Below, piece by piece: positions 1,327-18,394 of a DNA stretch of 24,284 nucleotides. The notes beneath the pieces were generated by a model that did not search any database, had not been told where the DNA came from, and was given only the letters and a program-made list of their open reading frames with translations. The stretch is from the NCBI GenBank assembly GCA_965648905.1, contig CBFGIT010000036.1, forward strand, positions 1-24,284, given 5' to 3'. The stretch's first letter is position 1, and the number at the start of each line of letters is the position of its first letter. The translations under genes were made by a program, and so were the position numbers. The DNA comes from a candidate division WOR-3 bacterium (GTDB lineage: Bacteria > Hydrothermota > Tepidihabitantia > Tepidihabitantales > Tepidihabitantaceae).

Positions 1327-1354
1327 TTGACTTCGTCCGCGATTCGGGCATATT
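1327..1354 (+). promoter_or_regulatory. Putative sigma70 promoter of pheS-pheT (TTGACT-N16-CATATT)
   Basis: -35 at 1327-1332 and -10 at 1349-1354 (alternative TATTGT at 1351-1356); back-to-back with the adh promoter. Confidence 0.5.
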
Positions 1355-1371
1355 GTCGGGCAGAAGACCAG

Positions 1372-2886
1372 ATGACCAGACTTCCTGAGTTGGAGTATTC
1401 AGTCCTTGCCGCGCTTGCACCGGGCGGGGACGTTCTCGTTACCGACATTGTTCAGAGGACCGGCAAGGACCAGTCGCTGGTCATGGCCGGCGCAACCATG
1501 CTCCAGCAGCGCGGCCTGGTTACCATTACCGAGTCAAGCCAGGAAGAACTCAGTCTGACCGAAGAGGGCCGGGCTGCGGCCGCAGCGTTTCCGGAGCGAA
1601 AGGCACTGGCAGCGTTGGCAGGTGCGGGCGGTGCGGTCAGCCTGGCCGAGCTGCCCGGACTCCTGAACAAGGAAGACACCCGGGCCGAGGTGAAGTGGTT
1701 GACGAAGAAAGGCTGGTGCTCGCGGGATGGTGGGGCGATTGTCTTGAGCGACAAGGGAAAGGCAGCGCTTTCGAGCAAGGGCCCGGATGAGGTGCTGGTT
1801 GAGCTGCTGGCGGACAAGGGTCCGGCCACGGAAAGTGAGCTGGTTGCTGCGGACATTGACATCAAGGCCGCCCTGGAGCTGCTTAAGGGCAGAAACGAAC
1901 TGCTGAAGCGGAAAAAGCGCACCAGCCGCCGGCTGACATTGACTGAGGAAGGCGCGAACCTGAAGGCCGCAGGCATTGAACCCGCACCGGAAATCACCCA
2001 GCTTACACCCGAGCTTCTGGTCTCGGGCAAATGGCGCGAGGTGGTCTTCAAGAAGTACGACCCGAACCTGGCAACCGCTCCGCGCTATCCGGGCAAGGAG
2101 CATCCGCTCGGCCGGGTGGTGCAGGAGATTCGCCGGGCGTTTCTGGAGATGGGCTTTGAGGAAGTGGCTTCGCCGACGATTGACACGGCGTTCTGGGTAT
2201 TCGACGCGCTGTTTCAACCTCAGGACCACCCGGCCCGGGAGATGCAGGATACGTTCTACATGGGCGAGCCGGAGCGCGGCCGTTTGCCGGCTGAGGAGCT
2301 GGTCCGGGTCGTGGGCCGCACCCATGAGGACGGCGGCGATACCGGCTCGACCGGCTGGCGGTACAAATGGGACCCGGAACTGGCCCGTCGGCTGGTGCTG
2401 CGCACGCACACGACCGCGGCGTCGATTCGCGCCCTGGCCGCGAACCCGAACCCGCCGCGCAAGGTGTTCTGCATCGGCAAGACTTTCCGCCGCGAGAACA
2501 TCGACCAGACCCATCTGCCCGAGTTCATGCAGATTGACGGGATTATCATCGACGAGCAGGCAACCTTCGCGACCCTGCTCGGCACGCTCGAAGCGTTCTA
2601 CAAGAAGATGGGCGCAGAAGAGGTGCGCTTTCGGCCGTCGTTTTTCCCTTACACCGAGCCGAGCGCCGAGGTGTTTGCCCGGATGGGCAACCTGGGCTGG
2701 GTCGAGATGTGCGGCTCGGGTGTGTTCCGGCCCGAAGTGACCGAGCCGCTGGGCTGCAGGGTGCCGGTGCTCGCCTGGGGCGGTGGAGTCGAACGGATCG
2801 CGATGATGCGGTTCGGGATTGACGACATCCGTCAGTTGTACTGGGCCGACATCGACTGGCTCAGACAGGCGCGGCTTTCGAGATGA
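1372..2886 (+). CDS. pheS: Phenylalanine--tRNA ligase alpha subunit, archaeal/eukaryotic type, about 504 aa
   Basis: Class II aaRS motifs QDHPAREMQDTF, LRTHTT, FRRENID-THLPEF, FFPYTEPS, GSGVFRPEV, AWGGGVERIAM; long N-terminal region with winged-helix-like repeats (LTEEG twice). Start placed at ATG 1372 rather than TTG 1327, which is the -35 box. Confidence 0.96.
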   Translation: MTRLPELEYSVLAALAPGGDVLVTDIVQRTGKDQSLVMAGATMLQQRGLVTITESSQEELSLTEEGRAAAAAFPERKALAALAGAGGAVSLAELPGLLNKEDTRAEVKWLTKKGWCSRDGGAIVLSDKGKAALSSKGPDEVLVELLADKGPATESELVAADIDIKAALELLKGRNELLKRKKRTSRRLTLTEEGANLKAAGIEPAPEITQLTPELLVSGKWREVVFKKYDPNLATAPRYPGKEHPLGRVVQEIRRAFLEMGFEEVASPTIDTAFWVFDALFQPQDHPAREMQDTFYMGEPERGRLPAEELVRVVGRTHEDGGDTGSTGWRYKWDPELARRLVLRTHTTAASIRALAANPNPPRKVFCIGKTFRRENIDQTHLPEFMQIDGIIIDEQATFATLLGTLEAFYKKMGAEEVRFRPSFFPYTEPSAEVFARMGNLGWVEMCGSGVFRPEVTEPLGCRVPVLAWGGGVERIAMMRFGIDDIRQLYWADIDWLRQARLSR

Positions 2887-2928
2887 GGCGCATGGCGAAC
2901 AGCGAAAGGCGAATGGCGAAAGGCGAGC
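2887..2928 (+). repeat. Six tandem degenerate heptamers (consensus GGCGAAN) filling the pheS-pheT gap
   Basis: ggcgcat ggcgaac agcgaaa ggcgaat ggcgaaa ggcgagc, read directly from the sequence. Confidence 0.85.
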
Positions 2929-2932
2929 GCCA

Positions 2933-4705
2933 GTGCCGGTAGTCAGTATCGCCACTGCGACGCTGAAGCGGCTCATCGGCCGGAGCCTGGCACGGGACGA
3001 GCTGGTCACGGCTCTGGAGCAGCTCGGCAACAACGTCGAGGGCACGGCCACGGTCAATCTCTTCCGCTGCAACCGCTGCGGCCACCTGACCGAGTCGCTC
3101 GAACACGCCGACTTCGACGGGTCGTGCACGGCGTGCGCGGGCAAGGACATTGCGCTGGTGGGGGCGAGCGAGGTCATCCGTATCAGTCTGCTGCCGGTGC
3201 GGCCCGACATGTTCGACGTTGCCGGACTGGCTCGGGCCCTGCGCGGGTACTTGGGTATCGAGACCGGGCTGCCGAGCTACCAGCTCGAACCCTCGGGACT
3301 TGCGGTCGAGGTTCGGCCCGGGCTGGAGAACATTCGGCCCTGGATTGTTGCCGCGGTTGTGCGCGGCCTCACGCTCGACGACGAGACCGTCAAAGTCATC
3401 ATGAAAATGCAGGAGAATCTGCACTGGGCCCTGGGCCGGGACCGGCGTCGGGCATCAATCGGGGTCTATGACCTTGACACGGTTGAGCCTGACTTCGAGT
3501 ACTCGGCCGTGGCGCCTGATGGGGTAAAGTTCGTGCCGCTGTTCGGGATGCCTGAGGGGATGGTCGCGGTCGCGCCGCAGCAGGTGCTTGAGCGCCACCC
3601 CAAGGGTACGGCGTACAAGCATCTGCTTGAAGGGTTCTCTGCCTATCCGCTGCTTGCCGACGCGGGCGGTCGGGTGCTCTCGATGCCGCCGATTATCAAC
3701 AGTGAGGAGACGCGCGTCACCTCGCGGACCCGGAATCTGTTTGTGGACGTGACCGGCCCGGACAAGCATGCCATCACCAAGGCACTCGCGGTCATTGCCT
3801 GCAGCCTGGCTGACCTGGGCGCAAAGGTCGAGACGGTTCAGGTTATCTATCCGGACAAGACCAGAGAGACGACGCCGAATCTCACACCGGCAACCAGAAC
3901 CATCAGTCCGGACGCGGTCAGCCGTCTGCTCGGGTTTGCGGTGCCGGACATAGTGCAGTGTCTTACGCGCATGCGCTACGACGCGACCGCGGGCGACCGA
4001 GGAGTGCGGCTTGCGGTGCCGGCGTACCGGTCTGACATCATGCACGACTGCGACATAATCGAGGATGTTGCCATCGCCTACGGCTACCACAATGTCCGTC
4101 CCCGGCTCGTACCGACGATGACCATCGGCGGACCGCAGGCGGTCGAAGAGCTCTCCTCGATCTGCCGCCGGGTGATGACCGGGCTTGGGTTCCTGGAGAC
4201 GATGACCCTGATGCTGACGAACGAGCAGGAGCATTACACGATGCTGGGGCTGCCGGTGCCGGCCTCGCGCTGCCGCGTCGGCAACCCGGCGAGCGTCGAG
4301 CAGACGATGATGCGCGGTCATCTGATGAGCGGTCAGTTGGCGACGCTCCGGGTGAACGTAACCCGCGAGATGCCGCAGTTGATATTTGAAATCGGCGACT
4401 GTTTTGACCCGGACCCTGGGGCCGAAACCGGGGTCCGTACCGAGCGCCATCTGGCCGCGTCGGTTGCCGGGCCCAAAGCCGGGTTTGCCGATGTTCGGGC
4501 CTGGTGCGAGGCTTTGGCGCGCGAGCTGGGACTGACGGTCACGTTCAAGCCGACCGAACACCCGGTGTTCATTCCCGGCCGCGTCGCCGCGGTGTGCGGT
4601 GCAGGAGACTGGGGTATCGTCGGCGAGGTCCGGCCGGCGGTGCTCGAGGCATTCGGCCTGACCCAGCCGGTTGCCATGTTCGAAGTCAAGCTGAGTTCAA
4701 TCTGA
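2933..4705 (+). CDS. pheT: Phenylalanine--tRNA ligase beta subunit, archaeal/eukaryotic short type, with zinc-ribbon insertion, about 590 aa
   Basis: Starts GTG (MPVVSI); RPDMFDVAGLARAL, B3/4 motifs QENLH...RRRASIGVYDL and VLSMPPIINSE, B5 VPAYRSDIMHDCDIIEDVAIAYGY; lacks the bacterial B2 OB fold and the C-terminal FDX-ACB domain. Confidence 0.94.
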   Translation: MPVVSIATATLKRLIGRSLARDELVTALEQLGNNVEGTATVNLFRCNRCGHLTESLEHADFDGSCTACAGKDIALVGASEVIRISLLPVRPDMFDVAGLARALRGYLGIETGLPSYQLEPSGLAVEVRPGLENIRPWIVAAVVRGLTLDDETVKVIMKMQENLHWALGRDRRRASIGVYDLDTVEPDFEYSAVAPDGVKFVPLFGMPEGMVAVAPQQVLERHPKGTAYKHLLEGFSAYPLLADAGGRVLSMPPIINSEETRVTSRTRNLFVDVTGPDKHAITKALAVIACSLADLGAKVETVQVIYPDKTRETTPNLTPATRTISPDAVSRLLGFAVPDIVQCLTRMRYDATAGDRGVRLAVPAYRSDIMHDCDIIEDVAIAYGYHNVRPRLVPTMTIGGPQAVEELSSICRRVMTGLGFLETMTLMLTNEQEHYTMLGLPVPASRCRVGNPASVEQTMMRGHLMSGQLATLRVNVTREMPQLIFEIGDCFDPDPGAETGVRTERHLAASVAGPKAGFADVRAWCEALARELGLTVTFKPTEHPVFIPGRVAAVCGAGDWGIVGEVRPAVLEAFGLTQPVAMFEVKLSSI

Positions 4706-7181: not shown

Positions 7182-7210
7182 TTGACACGGCCCGGCCCAT
7201 GTCTTAGAAT
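7182..7210 (+). promoter_or_regulatory. Near-consensus sigma70 promoter of the 8-gene envelope operon (TTGACA-N17-TAGAAT)
   Basis: -35 at 7182-7187 and -10 at 7205-7210, 18 nt before the TTG start at 7229. Confidence 0.75.
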
Positions 7211-7228
7211 AACTAGGTTAGCTTCGCC

Positions 7229-8926
7229 TTGAATACTGCTTTCCTGGGTATAGTGCTACTCCTGCAGGCTGGTCCGAACGGGCCGGCCTCGGATTCTGGG
7301 GTCATCTGGGCTGATTCGAGCCGTCTCACCTCGTTTGAATTCGGTCCCATCACGACTCCCCAGTTCGCCGGCGATTCATTCGAAATCACGGTCTTTGCCA
7401 AAGACCAGTACAACGCGAACTTTCCCTATACCGGTTCTGCGCTGCTCACGACCACACTCGGGCCGTTTGTCATGCCCGGCTCGGTGTCCTTCTCTGCGGG
7501 CGTGCTCCAGCGTCGGGTCGCGGTCTCGCTGGCCGGGAGTATGCAGCTTCGCTGTATTGCCGACTCGGCTCAGGGCACAAGTAACGTCTTCGACGTCCAC
7601 CCCGGAGAGCCGAGCCGCCTGGTTACTATTTTGCCGGGCGAGCAGCTTGCCCGAGGTGTTCCGGGCGGCCGCAGCGGTCGGCCCTCAAGTCAGATTGCCG
7701 GTGATACTTTCACCTTCTCGGTCTATCTGACCGACCAGTGGTACAACCTGATTACGGTGCGCGACGACAGCATCTACCTGGGCGCGACCGACCGGTTCGC
7801 GGTCCTGCCCGCGGCTGGCAAGCTGTCCAACGGCACCGCCTCATTTGTCGGGCAGGTTCGGGCAGCAGGACGTCATCGGTTGTTTGCCTGGCCTAAACCC
7901 GGTTCATCGTTCGAGCCCGACTCATCAACTGCGTTCAGTGTCGTGCCCGGTTCATTCGCCGAGGTCCTGCTGGTCGTGCCGGGCGAAACCCTGCTGCCGG
8001 GTGACACCGCGTCAAGAGCCTGGCAGACTCCAGGCAAGAGCGGCACACCCTCGGTCCAGTTCCTGCGCACCCCATTCCCGGTCTGGGTCTACCCGACCGA
8101 CGCGTGCTGGAACGTCATCATCGGGCCGGGCGACACGGTTTTCTTGCGCTCGGACTTCTCGTTCGATTTCACGCCCGGCGCAGCCGAGCTGCGGGCTCCG
8201 GCTGAGTTCAGCGTTCAGTTCAACTACCCCGGGCCGAATCAGGACCTGTGGTGCGTGGCCCAGCAGTCGGGCAAGACTTCTTACCGCACCAAGCTTGATA
8301 TCCGCGCCTTGGGTAGCAGACTGGTCGTGTCTGCGGCGGAGACGGTGCCTGCCGGAAAACCGGAGTCCATCCGTGTCCGGGTTCTGGACGCGAACGACCA
8401 GCCGATTGTCGCCGCCCTCGTCAGGTCGAGCGTGTTTCAGGGCAACGGCGATATCCTTGACCCTGAACTTCTGACCGACACCTTGGGCAACGCCATTGTC
8501 CGCTTCATTGCGACCCGGGCGCGCATGGCTGAGCAGGACAGCATCCGCGTCACATCCGGCAACGCCTCAACCACCATCGGTATCTATGTCGACATAACCG
8601 ACAGTGCGGTGATGGAGGGTCGAGCAATTGCCTTTCCCAATCCGTTCGGGCTCGACCACCAGCGGACCGAGATTTCCTACTATCTCCAGAACTCAAGCGA
8701 CATCACCCTGAACATTTATGACCCGTTCGGCAACCCGGTATGGACGCGCCGGTTTCGTCGGGGCGAAGATGGCGCCCGGGCCGGACTCAACCGTCGCATC
8801 TACTGGGACGGCACAAATCAGCGCGGCCATCGTGTTGCCAGCGGTGTCTATGTGCTTGAGATTGTCGGCGAGGTGTTCACCGGCACGACGTTCAAGAGCA
8901 ACTACCGGATTGGGGTGGTCTGGTGA
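7229..8926 (+). CDS. Secreted multi-Ig-like-domain protein with C-terminal FlgD-Ig / T9SS-CTD-like domain, 565 aa
   Basis: Hydrophobic N-terminus (FLGIVLLLQA); repeated beta-rich modules; Big_1-like segment (VRVLDANDQPI...LTDTLGNA); C-terminal AFPNPF...IYDPFGNPV...YWDGTNQRGHRVASGVY. Confidence 0.8.
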   Translation: MNTAFLGIVLLLQAGPNGPASDSGVIWADSSRLTSFEFGPITTPQFAGDSFEITVFAKDQYNANFPYTGSALLTTTLGPFVMPGSVSFSAGVLQRRVAVSLAGSMQLRCIADSAQGTSNVFDVHPGEPSRLVTILPGEQLARGVPGGRSGRPSSQIAGDTFTFSVYLTDQWYNLITVRDDSIYLGATDRFAVLPAAGKLSNGTASFVGQVRAAGRHRLFAWPKPGSSFEPDSSTAFSVVPGSFAEVLLVVPGETLLPGDTASRAWQTPGKSGTPSVQFLRTPFPVWVYPTDACWNVIIGPGDTVFLRSDFSFDFTPGAAELRAPAEFSVQFNYPGPNQDLWCVAQQSGKTSYRTKLDIRALGSRLVVSAAETVPAGKPESIRVRVLDANDQPIVAALVRSSVFQGNGDILDPELLTDTLGNAIVRFIATRARMAEQDSIRVTSGNASTTIGIYVDITDSAVMEGRAIAFPNPFGLDHQRTEISYYLQNSSDITLNIYDPFGNPVWTRRFRRGEDGARAGLNRRIYWDGTNQRGHRVASGVYVLEIVGEVFTGTTFKSNYRIGVVW

Positions 8927-10215
8927 CAAGATTCCTCGCGCTGCTGCTACTGCTCGTGTCGTTGGCCGCGGCTGAGGGTGGTCTGCCCGGCGCATTCCTG
9001 AATTACGGTCTTTCACCTCGGAGTCTTGCCATGGGCAAAGCGTTCACCGCGGTCGCGGACGATGCCCAGGCCGGCTACTTCAACCCGGCCGGGCTGTTCC
9101 AGCTCAATGCCCAGGAAGTTATTCTCGCTCACTCGCAGCTCTACGGTGCGCGCATGGAATACGTCGGCTATGCTCTGCCAACAAGAGAGCTTGGGACTTT
9201 CAATATCACCCTGCTCAACTTCGGGGCTGAGGGCATCGAGGCACGGACATTCCGTAATGACCGGCAGGAGGACTACGCGTTTGCCGAGAATGCCTTCTGC
9301 GTATCGTATGCGTACAACCCGTGGAGCGTGTTCGGTTTTGGGGCCAATCTCAAGCTGGTAACCAAGAACCTCGCCCAGTACTCAGACGTCGGCGTCGGGC
9401 TTGACCTGGGTCTGCTTCTCCGGGCACCCGGGCCCCTGGCTTTCGGACTGACGGCCCAGAACGTGCTTCAGCCGAGACTGACGCTCGCCCGGATTCCCGA
9501 GGTTTACCCGCGCACCGTGCGTCTAGGCACGGCGGTGCGTCTGCTCGACGACCGGGTGACGGTTGCCGCCGACCTGGCCACGCCGGTGGTGTTCGACCGG
9601 GATTCTCTTGGCCAGCCGACTCAGAAGTTCACCCCGCACCTTGAACCACACGGTGGAGTTGAGATTGACCTGGTCCCAGGCATTCTCATCCCACGCGTCG
9701 GTATCGACATGAACGAAATCAGCGTGGGACTTGGTGTTCACAAGTCTTGGGGCAAGATGGCGCTGGGTGTTGACTATGCGTTTCTGCTCCATCACCAGTC
9801 GAACTACCGGCTTGCCCCGACCCACAAGGTCGGCTGTATCGTGAACTTTGCCGGATTCCGGGTGTGGATTGATGCTGAGCCGCGGCTGTTCAGTCCGACA
9901 CCTGAAGACAAACAGAACGTCCTCTGGCTTGACTTGCGGCTGATGACCCGGGCGCCGGTAAAGCGCTGGCAGGTCTTGATAAAGAACTCGTTCGGTGAGG
10001 TTGTCCGTTCCTACTCAGGCTGGGACCAGCCGCCGCTGCGCCTGACCTGGGACGGGCTGGATGATGCGGGTCGGTTGGTTTCTGACGGACGATACCTATA
10101 TGAGATAGTCATCATCGACAAGCGGAACACGTCGCTTGAACACTCTGGAACTCTGACTCAGGTCAGAACCCGCGGGCCGCAGGGCAAGATCGAGATCAGG
10201 CCCGGGCAGGAGTAG
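8923..10215 (+). CDS. PorV/UPF0164 (FadL-like) outer-membrane beta-barrel fused to a C-terminal FlgD-Ig-like domain, 430 aa
   Basis: Signal peptide; hallmark N-terminus FLNYGLSPRSLAMGKAFTAVADDAQAGYFNPAGL; amphipathic strands ending VDYAF...THKVG; tail with FSP...TWDGLDDAGRLVSDGRY. GTGA overlap with the upstream gene. Confidence 0.85.
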   Translation: MTRFLALLLLLVSLAAAEGGLPGAFLNYGLSPRSLAMGKAFTAVADDAQAGYFNPAGLFQLNAQEVILAHSQLYGARMEYVGYALPTRELGTFNITLLNFGAEGIEARTFRNDRQEDYAFAENAFCVSYAYNPWSVFGFGANLKLVTKNLAQYSDVGVGLDLGLLLRAPGPLAFGLTAQNVLQPRLTLARIPEVYPRTVRLGTAVRLLDDRVTVAADLATPVVFDRDSLGQPTQKFTPHLEPHGGVEIDLVPGILIPRVGIDMNEISVGLGVHKSWGKMALGVDYAFLLHHQSNYRLAPTHKVGCIVNFAGFRVWIDAEPRLFSPTPEDKQNVLWLDLRLMTRAPVKRWQVLIKNSFGEVVRSYSGWDQPPLRLTWDGLDDAGRLVSDGRYLYEIVIIDKRNTSLEHSGTLTQVRTRGPQGKIEIRPGQE

Positions 10216-10253
10216 AATCACGGAGTGCCGAAAGCTGAGCAGGAGCGGGTAGA

Positions 10254-12758
10254 ATGAGCTGGGCAACGGTCGCGCTGCTGGTCACGGTCGGAGTGCTGTC
10301 ACCAGAGCAGACCCGGCAACTGGTCGAGCGGTACAACAGGGCCCAGGCTGCGGTTGGGGCGCACGACTACGAACAGGCAGGCAAGCTGCTGGGCGGCCTG
10401 GTTCGCGACTTCGGCGGCAGTGAGTTCGGCAACGAGCTCGAGTACGCGCTGGCCGAGTGCTACTTCAACATGGGTCAGTACAGTCGGGCCTACGAGTCGT
10501 TCACAAAGCTGCTCGCCCGACCGCAGTACTCCTACATCAAGCCCGAGGCGATGTACGGCGCTGCGGTTTCGGCAATCATGCTCGGCAGCTTCCGTGAGGC
10601 CCAGGACCTGCTCGAGAAGCTGTCCAAGGAACAGGGTTATGACCGAGACGAACGGACCAGTTTCGCACTCGGCGTGCTCTACTACTTCCAGAAGAGTTAC
10701 GAACAGGCGATCGTCCGGCTGACCGGTCTGGAGATGCCCGAGGCGAAGTTCTACCTGGCTAAGGCGTACGCGCTCACCGGCAAACCACTGCCCGCGCTGG
10801 TGAAGTTCAAGGAAGTAACGGCCGAGGTGCCGAATACCCCGCTTGCGACCATGGCCCATTTCGCCGCTGGTCAGGCGCTTTTCATCAATCGTGACTATGA
10901 TGGCGCCCGGGCCAAGTTCCAGCAGTTCGTTGACAACTTCCCCTACTCGAACCTGGCCGACTTTGCCAGCTACTTTCTCGGGTGTGCACTGTTGGCGCAG
11001 AAGCAGTACGCGGCCGCGGTTGACCGGTTCATGCCTTTGACGCGCCATTCGAACAACCTGCTGGCGGCACATGCGAACTACTGGGTGGGCTATGCCGACT
11101 TGGCCCTGGGCAAGGCGCAGAGCGCGGTTGAGCGGTTCCAGCGGGTCCGGGCGAACTACCCGAAGACCAAGGTGTCAAGCTACGCCAACCTGCAACTGTC
11201 CCAGGCGATGCTTGCCACCGCGGACACGATTCAGACCCTGCTGGCGACCAGCCAGTTGGCCACGATGTTCAAGTCCGGAGACCTGGCCGGAGTCGGGAAC
11301 TATCTGTCCGGGGTCATCTCGTATCAGGTTCGTGAATACGACAAGGCAGCCCAGCAGTTCGAGACCGTACTCGTCAACTACGCGACGACCGCCTTGCGCG
11401 AGCCGGCCTGTGCCATGTTGCTTTTGGCTCTGGCCAGTTCGGGTCAGTACGAGAAGAGCGCGGCGATCGGCGCGAAGTACGTAGCCGACTTTCCCGACGA
11501 CACGACCCATTGGCGGGCCAAGACGCTGTATTTCCTGGCCGAGGGTCTGTACTATGACCGGAAGTACAGCGATGCCGACGCCTATTACCAGCAGGCTTAT
11601 TCCCGGTTTGCCAGTTCGGACATTGCGCCCTATGCCCGGCTCGGACGTGCCTACTGCCTTTATCACAACGGACGGTTGGGCGAGGCGGTCACGGGATTCA
11701 AGGCGCTGCTCAACGCCCGTGTCACCGACACGCTCTTCACCATCAGCGCCTATCTGGGCTACGGATATGCCCTGTTCAACCAGAAAGACTACCTCAAGGC
11801 GCTCGATGTGTTCGAGGCACTCACCAACACTTTCCCGGACCGCGATTTCGCCGCTATCCCCGGTTACTTCTACGCCGGTTACTGCTACTACCAGATGAAG
11901 TACTACGGCCAGGCGGTCGATGCCTGGACCGCGCTCATCAACAAGTTCCCGGGCAACAACAGCAAGGCGGCTGAGGCGGCGTTCCGTTCCGGCGACACGT
12001 ATTTCAAGGCCCTCGACTACGACAAGGCGATTGCGACCTTCACGTTCGTGATTGAGCGCTACCCGTTCTCCGATTTCGGTCCGCCTTCACAGGCACTGAT
12101 TGCTCAGTGCTACTACAACCGCAAGCAGTTTCTCGATGCGGTTCGTGAATACCAGAAGTTCATCGACCTGTACCCCTCGGACCCGCAGGTGCCGAGCGTG
12201 CGCAAGAGTCTGGAGGCGAGCTACTACTTTGCCGGCCAGGACGATTCGATGGTCATGGACGACTTCCTGCGACGCTTCCCCCAGTCGGAGATGGCGGCTG
12301 AGGGCCAGTACGAACGGGGCCGAAAGCTCTACGATGCCGGCGACTATGAACAGGCGGTTGCCGAACTGCAGAAAGCCGTCGTCAACTTCCCGGGTTCGCC
12401 GGTTGCGGGCGATGCCCAACTGCTGACCGCGGAAGCGTACGCCCAGCTCAAACGCTGGCCTGAGGCAGCCCAGGCGTACGAGCGTTTTCTTGCCTATTTC
12501 CCGAACCACGAGCAGCAGGCCGGCGCAACGTTCAATCTGGCGACCGCGTACTTCAACGCTGGTTCGTATCAGCAGAGCCTGAAGTGGTTCCAGACCGTCA
12601 CCGACTCATTTCCCGACTCTGAGTTTGCCGAAAGCGCCCGCAAGAACATCGAGGTGTCGCGCAAGCGACTGGGCGCAGGCGAAGGGGCCGGGCCGGAGAC
12701 GACCGGCGATGCCGTTTCCGGCGAAAGCACTCCAACCCAAGGAGAAAGACAGCAATGA
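10254..12758 (+). CDS. Large periplasmic TPR-repeat protein (BamD/CpoB-like repeats), 834 aa
   Basis: SD AGGAG at 10241-10245; hydrophobic N-terminus; many TPR-like units such as YALAECYFNMGQYSRA, FRSGDTYFKALDYDKAI and FNLATAYFNAGSYQQS, with recurrent F/YP-x-S motifs. Confidence 0.88.
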   Translation: MSWATVALLVTVGVLSPEQTRQLVERYNRAQAAVGAHDYEQAGKLLGGLVRDFGGSEFGNELEYALAECYFNMGQYSRAYESFTKLLARPQYSYIKPEAMYGAAVSAIMLGSFREAQDLLEKLSKEQGYDRDERTSFALGVLYYFQKSYEQAIVRLTGLEMPEAKFYLAKAYALTGKPLPALVKFKEVTAEVPNTPLATMAHFAAGQALFINRDYDGARAKFQQFVDNFPYSNLADFASYFLGCALLAQKQYAAAVDRFMPLTRHSNNLLAAHANYWVGYADLALGKAQSAVERFQRVRANYPKTKVSSYANLQLSQAMLATADTIQTLLATSQLATMFKSGDLAGVGNYLSGVISYQVREYDKAAQQFETVLVNYATTALREPACAMLLLALASSGQYEKSAAIGAKYVADFPDDTTHWRAKTLYFLAEGLYYDRKYSDADAYYQQAYSRFASSDIAPYARLGRAYCLYHNGRLGEAVTGFKALLNARVTDTLFTISAYLGYGYALFNQKDYLKALDVFEALTNTFPDRDFAAIPGYFYAGYCYYQMKYYGQAVDAWTALINKFPGNNSKAAEAAFRSGDTYFKALDYDKAIATFTFVIERYPFSDFGPPSQALIAQCYYNRKQFLDAVREYQKFIDLYPSDPQVPSVRKSLEASYYFAGQDDSMVMDDFLRRFPQSEMAAEGQYERGRKLYDAGDYEQAVAELQKAVVNFPGSPVAGDAQLLTAEAYAQLKRWPEAAQAYERFLAYFPNHEQQAGATFNLATAYFNAGSYQQSLKWFQTVTDSFPDSEFAESARKNIEVSRKRLGAGEGAGPETTGDAVSGESTPTQGERQQ

Positions 12759-13468
12759 TACTCGGCCGAAGCATTCTTGACCTTTTCAAGGGCAGCGTGG
12801 TCATGGTCCTGCTCCTGCTCGCCTCGATTGCCGCCCTGGCGCTCGTGATCGAGCGGCTGCTCTATTTCTTCCGCAACCGGTTCAACACCACCCGGGGTCT
12901 GACTGAGCTCAGACAGCGGCTCGCCAGTTCGGGTACTGCCGAAGCGCTCAACTGGTGCCGCAACCAGAAGAACCCGCTGGGCCGGATGTTCACGGTGGCG
13001 CTGGAGAACTTCTCGCTCGGCAGCGCCGAGCTGTCCGACCTGCTCTACAGCCTGATTCTGGAGGAACGAATCCGGTTCGAACGGCTGCTGGGCGGCATGG
13101 GCACGCTGGCCAACGTCGCCACCCTGCTCGGGCTGCTGGGCACGGTCACCGGACTCATCAACGCGTTCCACAATATCGCGGTGACCGGCTCGGGCGGACC
13201 CGCGGTCGTCTCCGGTGGTATCGCTGAGGCACTCATCACGACCGCGTTCGGGCTGTTCATCGGCATCCCGACGCTCTTCTTCTACAACTATTTCTCCAAG
13301 AAGTCGGCTGACCTGACCATCAGTCTGGAGAGCACCTGCGACCGACTGGTCGTGATGCTGAGTCGGATGAAGGAGAAAGGTATTTGTGAGCCGGCCCGCG
13401 AGCAGCCCGCGGTTGCGCTCCGGCCGCCCCACCCGGCAACGGCCGAGGATTCGGGCTGGAAATTCTGA
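12755..13468 (+). CDS. exbB: MotA/TolQ/ExbB proton channel family protein, 237 aa
   Basis: Three TM segments; motifs IERL, LLGLLGTVTGLINAF and GGIAEALITTAFGLFIGIP; ATGA overlap. Confidence 0.93.
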   Translation: MILGRSILDLFKGSVVMVLLLLASIAALALVIERLLYFFRNRFNTTRGLTELRQRLASSGTAEALNWCRNQKNPLGRMFTVALENFSLGSAELSDLLYSLILEERIRFERLLGGMGTLANVATLLGLLGTVTGLINAFHNIAVTGSGGPAVVSGGIAEALITTAFGLFIGIPTLFFYNYFSKKSADLTISLESTCDRLVVMLSRMKEKGICEPAREQPAVALRPPHPATAEDSGWKF

Positions 13469-13881
13469 TGCGTCGCCGACCGGTAGAGCCGCGCAGGAAC
13501 GAGCTGATTCTGACGTCGCTGGTGGACATCGCCTTGTCGCTCGTCATCGGATTCATGGTGGCCATGCCGCTTTTCTTTGAGACCGGGATCTTTGTGTCGG
13601 CACCGGGCGTGGCCCGGGTCGGCAAGAGCGAGCCGGGTTCGGACATCAAGGCCAACGTGTTCATCGCCAACAGCGGCCAGATCCTCCTGAACGAGGCGCC
13701 GGTGTCGTTCGAGAACCTGGCTGACCTGCTGCCCAAGCTGCTCGACCGCAGCGTCGAGCGAAGAGTGGTGGTTGCGACCGACGATTCGGTACGCTATGAA
13801 CGGGTGATGAGGGTGCTTGACATCGCCAAACAGTCCGGGGCCGCAGACCTGGCTCTGTTGCGCAAGCGGAGGGTCAAGTGA
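13468..13881 (+). CDS. exbD: ExbD/TolR family protein (copy 1, TM Asp retained), 137 aa
   Basis: LTSLVDIALSLVIGFMVAMP TM; DDSVRYERVMRVLDIAKQSG C-terminal motif; TGATG coupling. Confidence 0.9.
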   Translation: MRRRPVEPRRNELILTSLVDIALSLVIGFMVAMPLFFETGIFVSAPGVARVGKSEPGSDIKANVFIANSGQILLNEAPVSFENLADLLPKLLDRSVERRVVVATDDSVRYERVMRVLDIAKQSGAADLALLRKRRVK

Positions 13882-14273
13882 AGAACGTCGCCAACATTGA
13901 TATCCTGCCGATGGCCGCAGTCGGGCTCATCCTCGTACTGATCATGATGGTAATCTCGCCGCTGGTGGTATCGCAGAACAGCACGCCGGTAACGTTGCCC
14001 CAGACGCATACTTCTGAGCGCAAGGTCGAGAACGACATCAACATCACCTACACCCGTGAGGGCAACCTGCTCGTGAATGACCAGCCGGTCCGCGACCTCG
14101 AAGAGCTGGGCACTGCGCTCGAGCGCGAGCTGGTGTCAGACCCCTATCTGCTTGTCGTGGTACGGGCCGACACCGCCTGTCTCCATTCGGGCGTACTCGA
14201 TATTCTGTCCGCGGCCAAAGCGGCCGGCGCGCTGCGGATTGCCTGCGCGACCAAGCGGTTCAAGGAAGGCTAG
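13878..14273 (+). CDS. exbD: ExbD/TolR family protein (copy 2, TM Asp replaced by Ala), 131 aa
   Basis: IDILPMAAVGLILVLIMMVISP TM, VTLP, VVRAD...VLDILSAAKAAG; GTGA overlap. Confidence 0.85.
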   Translation: MKNVANIDILPMAAVGLILVLIMMVISPLVVSQNSTPVTLPQTHTSERKVENDINITYTREGNLLVNDQPVRDLEELGTALERELVSDPYLLVVVRADTACLHSGVLDILSAAKAAGALRIACATKRFKEG

Positions 14274-14274
14274 T

Positions 14275-15204
14275 ATGGCGCAGTTGTTTGAGGAAAAGGG
14301 CCTGCGCGGGATTGACATCTCGGTCGCGGTGTCGGTCGTGCTCCACGCCGCGCTGCTCGTGCTCTTCTCCCGGGCCACGCCCCGGGCGCGGGGGACGACC
14401 GAAGACCTGAAGCAGGTGACTTTCATGGACGTGACTTACCGGCCCGAGGTCGCTCAGCTTCTGCCCAAGGCCGCGTTCACCGGCGGTAGTTCGAACCTGC
14501 CCGACGCGCCGGTCCCGACCTATGCCTCGGGCGTGGCCGCCGAAGAAGTGCCGTCGATTGACATGTCGGCCACGCTCGAACGCGACCAGTCGCAGGCTTC
14601 AATTGACATGGACCGGTACGAGCTCGACCGCGGTGAGGGCGGCATGGACGTCATCCGGCTGGGCGGTTCAAGCTCGGGCAAGTCGACCGAGGAGATTCTG
14701 GCACAACCCAAGGTTGAACTGGCCCGCGGTCTGGGCGGCCGCGGCTCGGGCGCAGGACTTCCGGGGCTCGCCGGGTATCCGGGTGTGGCTCAGCCTCAGG
14801 CCCAGTTGTCAATTGAACACCGGGCGCTCGAGAAGCCTGCGGCCCGGGCCCTGCCCCAGATGCCGACCCAGGATTTGCCCAAGGTCGAAGCGCCGGTCGC
14901 CCAGGGCAGCCAGTTCATGATTGCCGGTCCGATTTCTCAGCGACAGATAAACCGCAAAGTCGTGCCCAAGTACCCGCGCTGGGCGCTGGACCGCCGCATC
15001 TCCGGCACGGTCATCGTCAGGATATGGGTACTGCCCAACGGTCAGGTCAAAGGTGCGCCGACAGTCGAGACCAGCTCAGGCTATCCTGACCTCGACCAGG
15101 TTGTGGTCGACGCGCTGCGCGGCTGGGAATTCGCCCCGCTCGGGCCCGGCGTGAAGTCCGAGGACCAGTGGGGTGTTGTTACCTTCAAGTTCGCCCTCTC
15201 ATAA
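14275..15204 (+). CDS. tonB: Energy transducer TonB family protein, 309 aa
   Basis: TM with SxxxH (VSVVLHAALL); Gly/Pro-rich linker; TonB_C PKYPRWALDRRISGTVIVRIWV...SSGYPDLDQVVVDALRGWEFAP. Start ATG 14275, 1 nt after the exbD2 stop. Confidence 0.9.
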   Translation: MAQLFEEKGLRGIDISVAVSVVLHAALLVLFSRATPRARGTTEDLKQVTFMDVTYRPEVAQLLPKAAFTGGSSNLPDAPVPTYASGVAAEEVPSIDMSATLERDQSQASIDMDRYELDRGEGGMDVIRLGGSSSGKSTEEILAQPKVELARGLGGRGSGAGLPGLAGYPGVAQPQAQLSIEHRALEKPAARALPQMPTQDLPKVEAPVAQGSQFMIAGPISQRQINRKVVPKYPRWALDRRISGTVIVRIWVLPNGQVKGAPTVETSSGYPDLDQVVVDALRGWEFAPLGPGVKSEDQWGVVTFKFALS

Positions 15205-15205
15205 C

Positions 15206-16102
15206 ATGCGCACACTTACACTGCTGCTTGTGGCATCGCTGGCTCTGGCCCAACCTGACTCAGGGAAGACAGCGCAGGCCCCAAAGCCGGCTGATGCCCA
15301 TACCCTGGGCGAAGAAGTCATCACCGGCGAGGCCGAAGTCAAGGTCACGGATACCAAAGTATGGTTCCCACCCCAGATTGACCCGTTCGCTCCGGTCAAC
15401 GCCATCCTCGCGCCCGAGTCCTATGTCCTTGACGAAGGGCTGTACCATTCGGTTGACTCGATGACCGTGCCGCACCACTTCATTCACTCCTCCTACCTGC
15501 GCGTGCCGGTGGAACGGAACTTCATCTACGGTGATATCATGGTCTTTCTCCCTTCGTTTGAGTCGCGAGTCGCAACCTGGGAACTGGTCGTCGCCAACTC
15601 GCTGGGGGAGACCGTGCGTCGGGTCAAGCAGAAGGGGCAGCCGCCCGCGGTCATCACCTGGGATGGCCGGAGCGACGCGGGTGAGCCGATCGCCCCGGGT
15701 GAGGTCTACAGCTTCACGTTCAACGCCTATGACGCCCAGGCCAACCAGACGAGGATTCCGGGTCAGCCCCAGCGTATCAACGCGGTCGTCTACCAGCAGA
15801 AGGACGAATGGGTCGTGGCGATGGCCGCGGACCAGATATTCGCCGGTGACGGCGCGCAACTGGTGGAGCTGGCCGGCTCGCGGCTCGATGAGGCGGCCAA
15901 TGTGGTCAAGGAGCGGTTCAAGAAGGAAGTCATCGTCTACGTCTATTCCGAGCAGGAGCGGTTGTCGGCCGAGCGCTGCCGCGTCATCAAGGCGGAGCTG
16001 GCGCGCCGCGTTGTCCTGCCGCCCGAAGCGCTGAAGGTTGCCCCGCGCTTTGTTCCCGGGCTTCAGCCCAAGAACTCCAGAGTCGAAATCCACGTTATCT
16101 AG
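15206..16102 (+). CDS. Exported protein with FlgD-Ig-like domain and degenerate OmpA-like C-terminal domain, 298 aa
   Basis: Signal peptide MRTLTLLLVASLALA; WELVVANSLGETVR...TWDGRSDAGEPIAPGEVY; C-terminal IFAGDGAQL...LDEAA...LSAERC...NSRVEI resembling OmpA_C (LS..RA, NRRVEI). Confidence 0.7.
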   Translation: MRTLTLLLVASLALAQPDSGKTAQAPKPADAHTLGEEVITGEAEVKVTDTKVWFPPQIDPFAPVNAILAPESYVLDEGLYHSVDSMTVPHHFIHSSYLRVPVERNFIYGDIMVFLPSFESRVATWELVVANSLGETVRRVKQKGQPPAVITWDGRSDAGEPIAPGEVYSFTFNAYDAQANQTRIPGQPQRINAVVYQQKDEWVVAMAADQIFAGDGAQLVELAGSRLDEAANVVKERFKKEVIVYVYSEQERLSAERCRVIKAELARRVVLPPEALKVAPRFVPGLQPKNSRVEIHVI

Positions 16103-16218: not shown

Positions 16219-16980
16219 ATGCTGCCTGATGCCTATGTCCGAACCGTTCTCGCCAAGTATGACCTGCCATCCGGGCCGAATTCACCGGCCGAGTGCGTCG
16301 CGGTCGAGTTGAAGAAGCCGATTACCGAGTGGGCCGGTCGGTACCTGGTTGGAATCCAGTTCTGCGGTTCGTACGCTAACGGCACCCGCATCAAGGGTTC
16401 AACCGATGTCGACCTGCTGGTGCTGCTCGGACCACGTACCCCGCTCGACATTGACAAGCTCTACGAGCGGTTCTTCAGCTTCCTCAAGTCGCGCAACCTG
16501 AACCCCCGCCGTCAGGCGACATCAATCGGCCTGGACTATCACGGACTGACCGTTGACCTGGTCCCGGCAAAGCAGGAATGGGGCGCTTCGAACGACTGCC
16601 GGATATTCAGGACCGAGCGCCAACGCATTGCCCGAACCAACTTCGAGACTCACCTGAAGACCGTCAAGGAGTCGGACGTAATCGAAGAAATCCGGCTGGT
16701 CAAGATCTGGCGCACCATGCGTAACCTTCGTTTTCCTTCGTTCTATCTCTGCCTGACCGTGATCGATGCTCTGCGCCACCGGGCGCACCACCAGCCGGCT
16801 AAGAACCTCGAAACCGTGCTCCACTATCTGAAGGACGTTTTCCCCAACGCACCGATTCGTGACCCGGCCAACTTCGAGAACCTGGTTTCAGACGACCTGC
16901 TCAAACACGAGAAACTCGCCATTGCCGACGCCGCAACCGACTCGCTTGAGTACATCGACTGGTCGTATATCGTCCGATGA
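16219..16980 (+). CDS. SMODS / CD-NTase (cGAS/DncV/OAS-like) Pol-beta superfamily nucleotidyltransferase, 253 aa
   Basis: hG[S]x9DxD motif CGSYANGTRIKGSTDVDLL; third Asp in VDLVPA; OAS-like C-terminal helices IRLVKIWR...FPSFYL and DPAN-ENLVSD; strong SD. Confidence 0.82.
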   Translation: MLPDAYVRTVLAKYDLPSGPNSPAECVAVELKKPITEWAGRYLVGIQFCGSYANGTRIKGSTDVDLLVLLGPRTPLDIDKLYERFFSFLKSRNLNPRRQATSIGLDYHGLTVDLVPAKQEWGASNDCRIFRTERQRIARTNFETHLKTVKESDVIEEIRLVKIWRTMRNLRFPSFYLCLTVIDALRHRAHHQPAKNLETVLHYLKDVFPNAPIRDPANFENLVSDDLLKHEKLAIADAATDSLEYIDWSYIVR

Positions 16981-17023
16981 CCAGCCTGAGTTGACAGGCC
17001 GGCAGACGCAAGGAAGATTAGCC

Positions 17024-18394
17024 ATGAATATCTCGCCACCAGTCTGCTTGGTTGCTGGCATCCTGCTAGTGGCTGTCACCTCGGTCGATGCCCAGAACTG
17101 CGGCAGTTGTGCCGGGTGCCCGGCCAGCACCAGAGTCTTGCTTCGGACCGAGGCCGAGCACTGTCATTGGCTGGAAGTTGCATCGGTCGCGCCTGATGGT
17201 CCGGCAGCCCGGGCCGGCGTCGAGCCCGGCGACGTTCTGGTCAGCTATGCCGGGTCAACCGTCGGGTGCCTCGCCGACCTGAATCGCGCCCGCGACGCGG
17301 CGAAGACCGAAAGCGTGACCGTCTCGTTCCGCCGGAAGGAGAAGCTGCTCAACTTCATCCTGCCCCGGGGTAAGCTCGGCATCTACTTCAACGAATGGCA
17401 GCAAGACCTGGTGGCGGACAAGGACGCGAAGGTCATCACGGGCGTGCCCGCCTTGGGCTGGCACGAAAACAAGTCCAATTCCTTTATGGGTGCACTCGAG
17501 GCCGTGCTCAGGCAGCAGGGCGTCGAGGGAGACTACGCCTACGTGTGCGGCGTCTCGGGTGCGGCTTTCCGAACGCACTTCTTCGACACCTGGTGCCCGA
17601 GCTCGCCCGACCCAACCTGCGGATTCGACGCCGCTTCTGAGGCGCTGGCCGCGGTCGGGCTCAAGGCCACCTGGCTGCACGTCTCAAGTGACGGCAAGAA
17701 CAAGCCCCAGATTGTCGCGGCCATCAAGAAGAGCATCGATGCCGGCATGCCGGTGCTGGCGCTTGACCTCAGAAACCTGCCCGAATGGGGCGTCATCACC
17801 GGCTACCAGAAGAACGGCCAGGAGTTCTTCTGCCGGACCTGTTTTGACAACCGCAAAGGCTACGAGCTGGCCGAGAAGTTCCCGTCTGCAGTCGCAATAC
17901 TTGCGAAGCTGGCCAGGACCCGGGCTGCCAAGGAAGGTGTGCGGCGGTCGTTTCGCACCGTTGTCCAGAACCTGACCACCAAGAAGTACGGCGAGTACTA
18001 CTCGGGTCTCGCCGCATTTGACAAGTGGGTCGAGCGGCTCCGGACCGACGACTTCACGAAGCTCGACAGCGTGCAACTGTCAAACGTTGTGCAGGCCAAC
18101 TACTGGATATACGATCGGGTTGTCACCGATCGGCAGACCGGTCTTGCCTACCTTGACCGCGTCGCCGAGGATATGCCTGAGCTGGAGCCGCGCATGGCCG
18201 ACCTGACCGCGCTCTACGTGCAGGAAATTGAGGCCCTCAACCTGCTGCGCGCTGAGTTGCCCTGTCCGGGCAGCGTGACCAGGACCGAGCACTGGCCCCG
18301 CGAAACTCGCGACCGGCAGGCAGCGGCGCTTGCGACCGCGCGTGAGTTCGAGGAACAGGCGCTCGCAATATGGCAGGAGCTGGCGGCGCAGTGA
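17024..18394 (+). CDS. Exported protein with Cys-rich N-terminus (CGSCAGC), PDZ domain and BtrH/C39-like papain-fold domain, about 456 aa
   Basis: Signal peptide ending VDA; PDZ VASVAPDGPAARAGVEPGDVLVSY; YAYVCGVSGAAFR, IKKSIDAGMPVL, EWGVITGY. ATG 17024 follows AAGGAAG. Confidence 0.7.
   Translation: MNISPPVCLVAGILLVAVTSVDAQNCGSCAGCPASTRVLLRTEAEHCHWLEVASVAPDGPAARAGVEPGDVLVSYAGSTVGCLADLNRARDAAKTESVTVSFRRKEKLLNFILPRGKLGIYFNEWQQDLVADKDAKVITGVPALGWHENKSNSFMGALEAVLRQQGVEGDYAYVCGVSGAAFRTHFFDTWCPSSPDPTCGFDAASEALAAVGLKATWLHVSSDGKNKPQIVAAIKKSIDAGMPVLALDLRNLPEWGVITGYQKNGQEFFCRTCFDNRKGYELAEKFPSAVAILAKLARTRAAKEGVRRSFRTVVQNLTTKKYGEYYSGLAAFDKWVERLRTDDFTKLDSVQLSNVVQANYWIYDRVVTDRQTGLAYLDRVAEDMPELEPRMADLTALYVQEIEALNLLRAELPCPGSVTRTEHWPRETRDRQAAALATAREFEEQALAIWQELAAQ

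Follow-up and report, generated by a model that had tools for sequence, protein, structure and literature searches.

A 24,284-nucleotide (nt) stretch of DNA from a candidate division WOR-3 bacterium (contig CBFGIT010000036.1, positions 1 to 24,284; hereafter the window) carries an operon of eight same-direction open reading frames (ORFs), running from 7229 to 16102, in which an ExbB-ExbD-TonB motor is encoded together with a barrel resembling type IX secretion system (T9SS) PorV, along with a protein with a tail similar to a T9SS C-terminal domain (CTD). The operon is real and conserved and is probably a cell-envelope machine not described before. The reading that we favor, and whose chances we judge to be about even, is that it constitutes an accessory trans-envelope machine driven by the proton motive force, a private Ton-type motor for one cargo and its own PorV-like barrel; as such, it would depend on the T9SS but is unlikely to be its general motor. 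We favor this reading because of the synteny of the operon, the fusion of the barrel to the tetratricopeptide repeat (TPR) protein in one relative, the analogy with cognate cargo-barrel pairs, and the presence in the host of other motors that already have clients. Genomes (the host being G000), host contigs, fetched loci, and families are labeled G, C, L, and f, respectively.

An earlier note, made from the letters of the window, had described eight genes in one operon behind one strong promoter, and this is borne out by the ORFs, by their junctions (-4, +38, -4, -1, -4, +1, and +1 nt, with tonB starting at the ATG at 14275), and by the sigma70-like site (Table 1). The promoter site ends 18 nt ahead of the first start codon, and in 2 of 5 relatives checked, a site matching 11 or 12 of the 12 consensus bases occurs at the same position. 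Among the 191 sites of equal quality in the genome, 159 fall no more than 350 nt upstream of a called gene; a promoter scan at a loose threshold found 3 sites, with 2.0 expected. ExbB, both ExbDs, and TonB_C exceed their Pfam cut-offs, and domain content as confirmed with NCBIfam and Pfam upholds the earlier calls for genes 2 through 8, that of gene 8 as OmpA-like by structure only. The tail of gene 1 scores under every cut-off (Por_Secre_tail, 14.8 versus 23; FlgD_ig, 23.1 versus 27), yet is CTD-like.

Linkage of the PorV-like gene to exbBDD-tonB, which the earlier proposal required, is conserved both within WOR-3 and in a second phylum. In a sample of 121 WOR-3 genomes, gene 8 has matches in 71, one of which is through the immunoglobulin-like (Ig) domain of gene 2 only, leaving 70, and the TPR gene (searched at an E value of 1e-40, with 8 candidates scored per genome) has matches in 66. 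Where both genes occur (65 genomes), they are neighbors in the same locus in 57; the 8 unlinked cases comprise 3 from family f17, whose split was seen directly in G050, and 5 in which the genes are on separate contigs. The order barrel-TPR-exbB-exbD-exbD-tonB-gene 8 is intact in 16 of the 19 genomes fetched first, and 14 of 20 further loci, which are partly truncated, include the barrel. Approximately 40% of the sampled WOR-3 genomes, whole families included, are without the operon. The sprA gene of family f17 is located some 14 kb from gene 8.

Among close homologues of gene 8, those with an organism name are from WOR-3 or unclassified, and a more distant group of homologues led to a second phylum that carries the core order of the operon. 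A single scan of genome contigs yielded 2 loci from 64 stretches, and the range beyond WOR-3 is thus based on this one phylum of 12 genomes and on leads from Atlas clusters. Nine loci from the second phylum were fetched. In one (L111), all eight genes stand in order, gene 1 being at least 1456 amino acids (aa) long; in another (L109), a CTD protein of at least 2485 aa precedes a 1344-aa ORF that fuses the PorV barrel to the TPR protein; and in two (L108 and L110), exbB is preceded by an OmpA-domain protein, which in L108 has Ig repeats. One second-phylum genome contains three copies of the operon with differing upstream partners. All 12 genomes have a SprA-like match, one of them weak, and no group in which the operon was seen is without SprA. 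Clusters in the Atlas suggest Elusimicrobiota and Krumholzibacteriota as further carriers, which are unverified leads.

Table 1. Promoter and genes of the operon, in window coordinates
Feature	Coordinates	Strand	Description	Basis
Promoter	7182..7210	+	Sigma70-like, 11/12 consensus, 17-nt spacer	Predicted from sequence
Gene 1	7229..8926	+	Exported protein of 565 aa with Ig repeats and a CTD/FlgD-like tail at its C-terminus; may be the surface passenger of gene 2	
Gene 2	8923..10215	+	PorV/PorQ-family beta-barrel with C-terminal FlgD-type Ig domain (presumably periplasmic)	
Gene 3	10254..12758	+	834-aa TPR scaffold; signal-like N-terminus, no lipobox cysteine	
Gene 4	12755..13468	+	ExbB/TolQ-family motor ring subunit	PF01618, E 3e-28
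Gene 5	13468..13881	+	ExbD keeping the transmembrane aspartate	
Gene 6	13878..14273	+	ExbD without the transmembrane aspartate (Ala here)	
Gene 7	14275..15204	+	TonB/TolA-type force transducer	PF03544, E 2e-14
Gene 8	15206..16102	+	Soluble periplasmic protein: signal peptide, FlgD-type Ig domain, degenerate OmpA-like domain	

The host genome, which is 99.6% complete, encodes a T9SS core outside the operon. SprA (1851 aa, contig C10) scores 470.7 bits against TIGR04189, whose cut-off is 200; two full-length PorU-like genes, one of which is followed by PorV, score 354 to 357 bits, just under the cut-off of 420; and type A CTD matches number at least 148, with 150 of the 245 candidates having been scored. 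GldL, GldM, and GldN had no match in the host, either in a family search or with unfiltered profiles from three Bacteroidota operons run on six frames, and the GldK matches look like generic FGE-domain proteins. A complete PorKLMN motor elsewhere in the genome, which would have refuted the earlier proposal, was thus not found. GldM was found in 0 of the 121 WOR-3 genomes by a search of imperfect sensitivity: a control sample from Bacteroidota comprised 26 genomes, 23 of which have SprA, and GldM was recovered in 6.

A T9SS core without GldLM, together with the presence of SprA in all groups having the operon, speaks for the operon being the general energy chain of this secretion system, with the parts of PorV, SprE, and PorE taken by genes 2, 3, and 8, respectively. 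The earlier note had advanced such a replacement of the PorLM/PorKN motor, which we now regard as very improbable. Whereas SprA occurs in 118 and PorU-like genes in 117 of the 121 WOR-3 genomes, gene 8 and the TPR gene are confined to the smaller sets given above, and neither matched in families f12 (0 of 6 genomes) and f13 (0 of 14 genomes), all 20 of which have SprA. This family-wide absence despite SprA indicates that the operon is not the universal T9SS motor of the phylum. In addition, a porU-adjacent PorV and a lipoprotein candidate for SprE are encoded elsewhere in the host, a different, single-copy exbB-exbD-exbD-tonB locus follows the distribution of SprA, being present in 113 of the 121 genomes, and the operon copies of the second-phylum genome just described differ in their upstream partners.

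The proposed equivalences of genes 3 and 8 also failed family tests. Gene 3 scores 73.6 bits against the 250 required by the SprE/PorW model, and the N-termini of its homologues are without a lipobox cysteine; it was rejected as SprE on both counts, with the TPR lipoprotein at C1:74958-76982 being at least as good a candidate. The latter (G000:C1:74958-76982, or L137:4959-6983 on the minus strand) is a 674-aa lipoprotein with a SprE/PorW-like TPR N-terminal half and a C-terminal OmpA domain; its SprE/PorW match is a single stretch of 73 bits, below the cut-off, and it could possibly be the wall-anchored SprE of a hub-less T9SS. PorE is a lipoprotein with TPR, propeller, and OmpA modules, and gene 8, which holds Ig and degenerate OmpA-like domains alone, was rejected as its counterpart.

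The host has three ExbB loci: a Pal-CpoB-TolQRA locus on C5 (with TolB on C12), an exbB-exbD-exbD-tonB locus on C15, and the present operon. The statement that TonB-dependent receptors (TBDRs), TolB, and Pal are absent therefore applies to the window and not to the genome, where 9 TBDR barrels and a full Tol-Pal system are served by the two other ExbB loci. The C15 locus adjoins a cluster of TBDR, CTD protein, and PorV (G000:C15:56580-68733, L003), and its counterparts in relatives often precede a TBDR, a large CTD protein, and PorV. ExbBs of this TBDR-linked type form one clade (support, 100/99) with the operon ExbBs outside it; the latter may or may not form a single clade in this tree. If any Ton motor serves as the general T9SS energizer, the C15-type locus would be the best candidate by its distribution, although TBDRs also explain it: of five genomes checked, four have 1 to 3 TBDR matches, and G007 has the locus and no TBDR match. 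In f12 and f13, 19 of the 20 genomes have a single ExbB locus, which was of the C15 type in all 6 genomes fetched.

As the earlier note had supposed, gene 2 encodes a PorV-like barrel rather than an ordinary FadL transporter. It scores 91.3 bits against the PorV_fam model NF033709 (cut-off, 90) and also matches FlgD_ig, reaches neither the PorQ nor the PorV2 equivalog cut-off, and has no match to the PorV equivalog model. Its AlphaFold2 model (pLDDT, 85.5) consists of a barrel followed by an Ig domain, and the closest PDB folds are those of PorV (8gl6_F and 6h3i_F; E values, 7e-10 and 7e-9), ahead of FadL/TodX (2e-7). The proximity of the FadL/TodX folds, along with the TBDR-CTD-PorV clusters that tie PorV paralogs to uptake, raises the alternative of energized import, in which the motor would open the hatch of a FadL-like channel formed by gene 2, and gene 1 would act as a binding protein on the surface. 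Opening outer membrane channels is the known job of TonB. Nevertheless, PorV is the better match in both structure and sequence, and the loci compared show no conserved plug domain, inner-membrane transporter, or catabolic genes next to the operon, making import highly improbable.

The host contains 17 PorV-family matches, 14 of which are above the cut-off, with gene 2 the weakest of those 14. A tail of the gene 1 type occurs on 9 of the 14 same-strand genes directly upstream of host PorV-family genes, and, with gene 1 excluded, the tails upstream of PorV genes outscore other tails (8 versus 69, P = 0.006, the paralogs being non-independent). Since many PorV-family genes are preceded by their own CTD protein, genes 1 and 2 represent one of many cargo-barrel pairs, and the gene order suggests that gene 1 is carried by gene 2 as its dedicated carrier. 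In three other pairs, recognized by inspection, a PorV-family barrel with a fused OmpA-like domain lies directly behind a CTD-type protein (C2:80673-82415, C10:104212-106002, and C45:5416-7170). Gene 1 is the least conserved part of the operon, its length in relatives ranging from about 210 to more than 2400 aa.

The host pairs match those of Flavobacterium johnsoniae, for which available passages of PMC12618676 describe cognate CTD-shuttle pairs and a PorE-anchored adhesin. In T9SS cognate pairs (SprB-SprF, Fjoh_3952-Fjoh_3951 with a PorE protein, PorU-PorV, and PorZ-PorQ), a CTD-type protein is likewise followed by its own barrel, TPR and OmpA-like modules are likewise nearby, and the operon host likewise has SprA and PorU. 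The operon differs from these in that its PorV-type barrel has a C-terminal Ig domain, its anchor is a soluble Ig/OmpA-like protein and not a lipoprotein, and a private ExbBD-TonB motor is attached in a host where GldL, GldM, and GldN were not found.

The motor is distinguished by its two unlike ExbDs. Two ExbD domains were recovered from 46 of 47 operon loci; 43 of these 46 loci have exactly one transmembrane aspartate, 3 have two, and none lacks it altogether, many of the loci being kin; in the ExbD pairs of the TBDR type, both aspartates are present in 15 of 15. In each of the three exceptions (L041, L118, and L135), two ExbBs and two ExbDs alternate, with an ExbD behind every ExbB and the aspartate in both ExbDs. 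In a quick tree of ExbDs (81 rows and 138 columns; 12 loci, mostly near-duplicates, excluded), the sequences group mainly by gene position, which excludes a simple swap of gene order as the source of the pattern, and well-supported branches force at least two changes. By this phylogeny, the aspartate has been lost at least twice, from the second paralog in some lineages and from the first in others. In 8 loci from families f19, f20, and f22, a second ExbB carries the aspartate-less ExbD as a C-terminal fusion (checked with a hidden Markov model in one). The sequences point to an ExbD/ExbD' heterodimer with one proton site; alternatively, the aspartate-bearing ExbD alone fills the pore and the other ExbD is accessory.

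In TonB (gene 7), the transmembrane helix carries a near-invariant histidine (His24) and is followed by a conserved strand, and the protein also has a linker specific to its family and TonB_C. The strand resembles the D-box described in the accessible text of PMC12215075 and is a D-box candidate. The operon thus shares with the Ton system (ExbB5-ExbD2-TonB) its motor families, the transmembrane histidine, the D-box-like strand, and TonB_C, but it has no TBDR, only one of its ExbDs has the essential aspartate, and ExbB-ExbD fusions occur in three families.

Genes 3 and 8 are the candidate links between the motor and the barrel. The TPR repeats of gene 3 score best as the CpoB/YbgF type, and their alignment is too variable for a pattern scan. 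The model of gene 8 has a poorly ordered N-terminal region, an FlgD-type Ig domain homologous to that of gene 2 (hhalign, 98.5%), and an OmpA-like fold; its N-terminus displays a conserved acidic motif of the beta-strand type that is a TonB-box candidate. A longer profile of this motif detected no other client in the host genome. In relatives, TPR proteins at L050:17546-19342 and L053:17283-18887 start with an N-terminal motif resembling the gene 8 box and could possibly be further clients of the operon TonB. Matches to the gene 8 profile include long chains with barrel-like, Ig-repeat, and OmpA parts, as read from their termini.

These features have a second explanation, in which the barrel, the TPR protein, and gene 8 form a mobilizable link between the outer membrane and peptidoglycan similar to Tol-Pal, TonB draws gene 8 away from the wall in the way that TolA-TolB acts on Pal, and gene 1 travels along as a passenger that can be dispensed with. 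The CpoB-type TPR repeats, the combination in gene 8 of a box-like strand with an OmpA-like fold, and the low conservation of gene 1 all accord with such a tether, and PMC12204202, in the portion available, argues that PorE-like proteins are tethers between the outer membrane and peptidoglycan. Tol-Pal (TolQ-TolR-TolA-TolB-Pal-CpoB) has the same assembly of motor, transducer, CpoB-type TPR protein, and OmpA-like module, but the operon has no TolB propeller and no lipidated Pal and instead includes an outer membrane barrel and CTD cargo. Moreover, a full Tol-Pal system is encoded elsewhere in the host, and the 19 f12 and f13 genomes with one ExbB/TolQ locus appear to live without either system. 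A tether is therefore unlikely.

The Agl-Glt machinery of Myxococcus xanthus (aglRQS, gltCDEG) has the same core, with one ExbB-like ring subunit, two ExbD-like paralogs, a TonB-like transducer, and TPR scaffolds (PMC3169522, as excerpted), and in the full machine an outer membrane barrel displays an adhesin. By this likeness, the motor could move a barrel-bound adhesin laterally for adhesion dynamics or slow gliding; AglQS is modeled as a heterodimer in the available text of PMC11761067, and second-phylum versions of gene 1 measure 1456 to more than 2480 aa. Against such transport, gene 7 scores 21.7 with the AgmX/PglI tail model (myxo_SS_tail; cut-off, 40) and is without an FHA domain, gene 3 passes none of the Glt models, the barrel is of the PorV type, and the cargo is CTD tailed. 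The operon has one aspartate and not two, whereas sections of PMC9389320 ascribe the aspartate to both AglQ and AglS, and the passages of PMC3169522 at hand judge the core alone unlikely to drive motility. Lateral surface transport is accordingly quite improbable. Overall, the operon would work most like a transducer of the Ton/Tol/Agl type joined to a T9SS cargo-shuttle pair.

For a private motor acting on one cargo-barrel pair, the steps may be envisaged as follows. Gene 1 would leave the cell via SprA, carried by gene 2 as its dedicated shuttle, and would stay surface bound to gene 2. The periplasmic Ig tail of the barrel would bind the TPR scaffold and gene 8, which together would reach the cell wall. 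An ExbB5 ring with the one-aspartate ExbD/ExbD' pair would drive TonB, whose C-terminal domain would grip and pull either gene 8, at its N-terminal strand, or the TPR protein. The stroke would free or shift the barrel-cargo pair, either by extraction from the translocon or by release and repositioning relative to the wall. The portion of PMC10994853 available reports that extraction of the carrier-substrate complex from SprA needs energy. Export by SprA, binding of gene 1 to gene 2, the links to the TPR protein and gene 8, and the target of TonB are suggested by gene order, fusions, and analogy.

Several observations weigh against this reading. In two sets of loci that include the barrel, gene 1 was recognized in just 12 of 17 and in 10 of 14, respectively, and gene 2 was not seen in two f7 loci (L052 and L053). 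In f17 (L041 and L042), the barrel and TPR genes lie apart from the motor. The OmpA-like domain of gene 8 has lost the usual motif and escapes the Pfam OmpA model, such that its binding to the wall is uncertain, and its N-terminal motif, in a position-specific scoring matrix for TonB boxes, is only weakly similar to TBDR N-termini, with just 3 of 9 TBDRs at or above the 95th percentile. Finally, many other cargo-barrel pairs in the host have no private motor, and the favored reading offers no reason why this pair should need one. The two f7 loci have several TPR-like ORFs and an unassigned protein of about 835 aa before exbB, with an ortholog of the porU-locus PorV about 4 kb away.

Taken as a whole, the operon may define a third output class of Ton/Tol motors, in which a one-aspartate ExbD/ExbD' heterodimer, tethered to ExbB in some lineages, acts as a single-site ratchet and not as a two-site rotor, pulling a PorV-type carrier and its cargo from SprA via TonB and the TPR and Ig-OmpA adaptors. 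This joint claim is tentative, and we hold it to be more doubtful than the private motor itself.

Downstream of the operon, the S8 and C25 genes proposed earlier as CTD-like cargo are real, but their tails did not score with the gene 1 CTD profile. They were rejected as dedicated cargo, and their proximity is ascribed to chance, because the genome averages about 1 CTD match per 20 kb, the downstream neighbors differ in relatives, and the tails do not score. Also in the window is a stand-alone 253-aa nucleotidyltransferase (16219-16980) with subthreshold matches to cyclic-oligonucleotide-based antiphage signaling system (CBASS) cyclase/SMODS models (49 versus 200 bits), a promoter-like hexamer in the upstream gap, and no evident effector adjoining. 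A PDZ-domain protein with a cysteine-rich N-terminus (16859-18394) precedes a C_GCAxxG_C_C redox protein. Upstream, 1327-4705 encodes a pair of about 504 and 590 aa, which we take to be phenylalanyl-tRNA synthetase-like; these lengths, from translations, are of the archaeal type, while the 327 and 787 aa of a relative (L056) are of the bacterial type.

Homologues of CTDs and SprA in non-Bacteroidota lineages of the Fibrobacteres-Chlorobi-Bacteroidetes (FCB) group are familiar from database annotation and are the less new part of these results. A literature consisting mostly of open-access main texts yielded no account of the operon or of any ExbD pair with one aspartate, and the accessible portion of PMC12204202 makes no mention of WOR-3. 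Current models of 5:2 motors invoke two aspartates and rotation of the dimer (PMC12215075 and PMC9389320, in the parts available). Natural one-aspartate motors and aspartate-less ExbD-ExbB fusions are ready reagents for asking if two sites and full rotation are needed, and a single-chain ExbB-ExbD linker constrains rotation without strictly forbidding it.

If the favored reading is true, a T9SS-type carrier barrel with its cargo would be a new class of client for Ton/Tol force transducers. In WOR-3, SprA, PorU, and PorV are almost universal, without detectable GldM. Should the near-universal second Ton locus also be the likely general energizer, then the T9SS translocon would run on TonB-type motors outside Bacteroidota, and GldLM/KN would be a later substitution.

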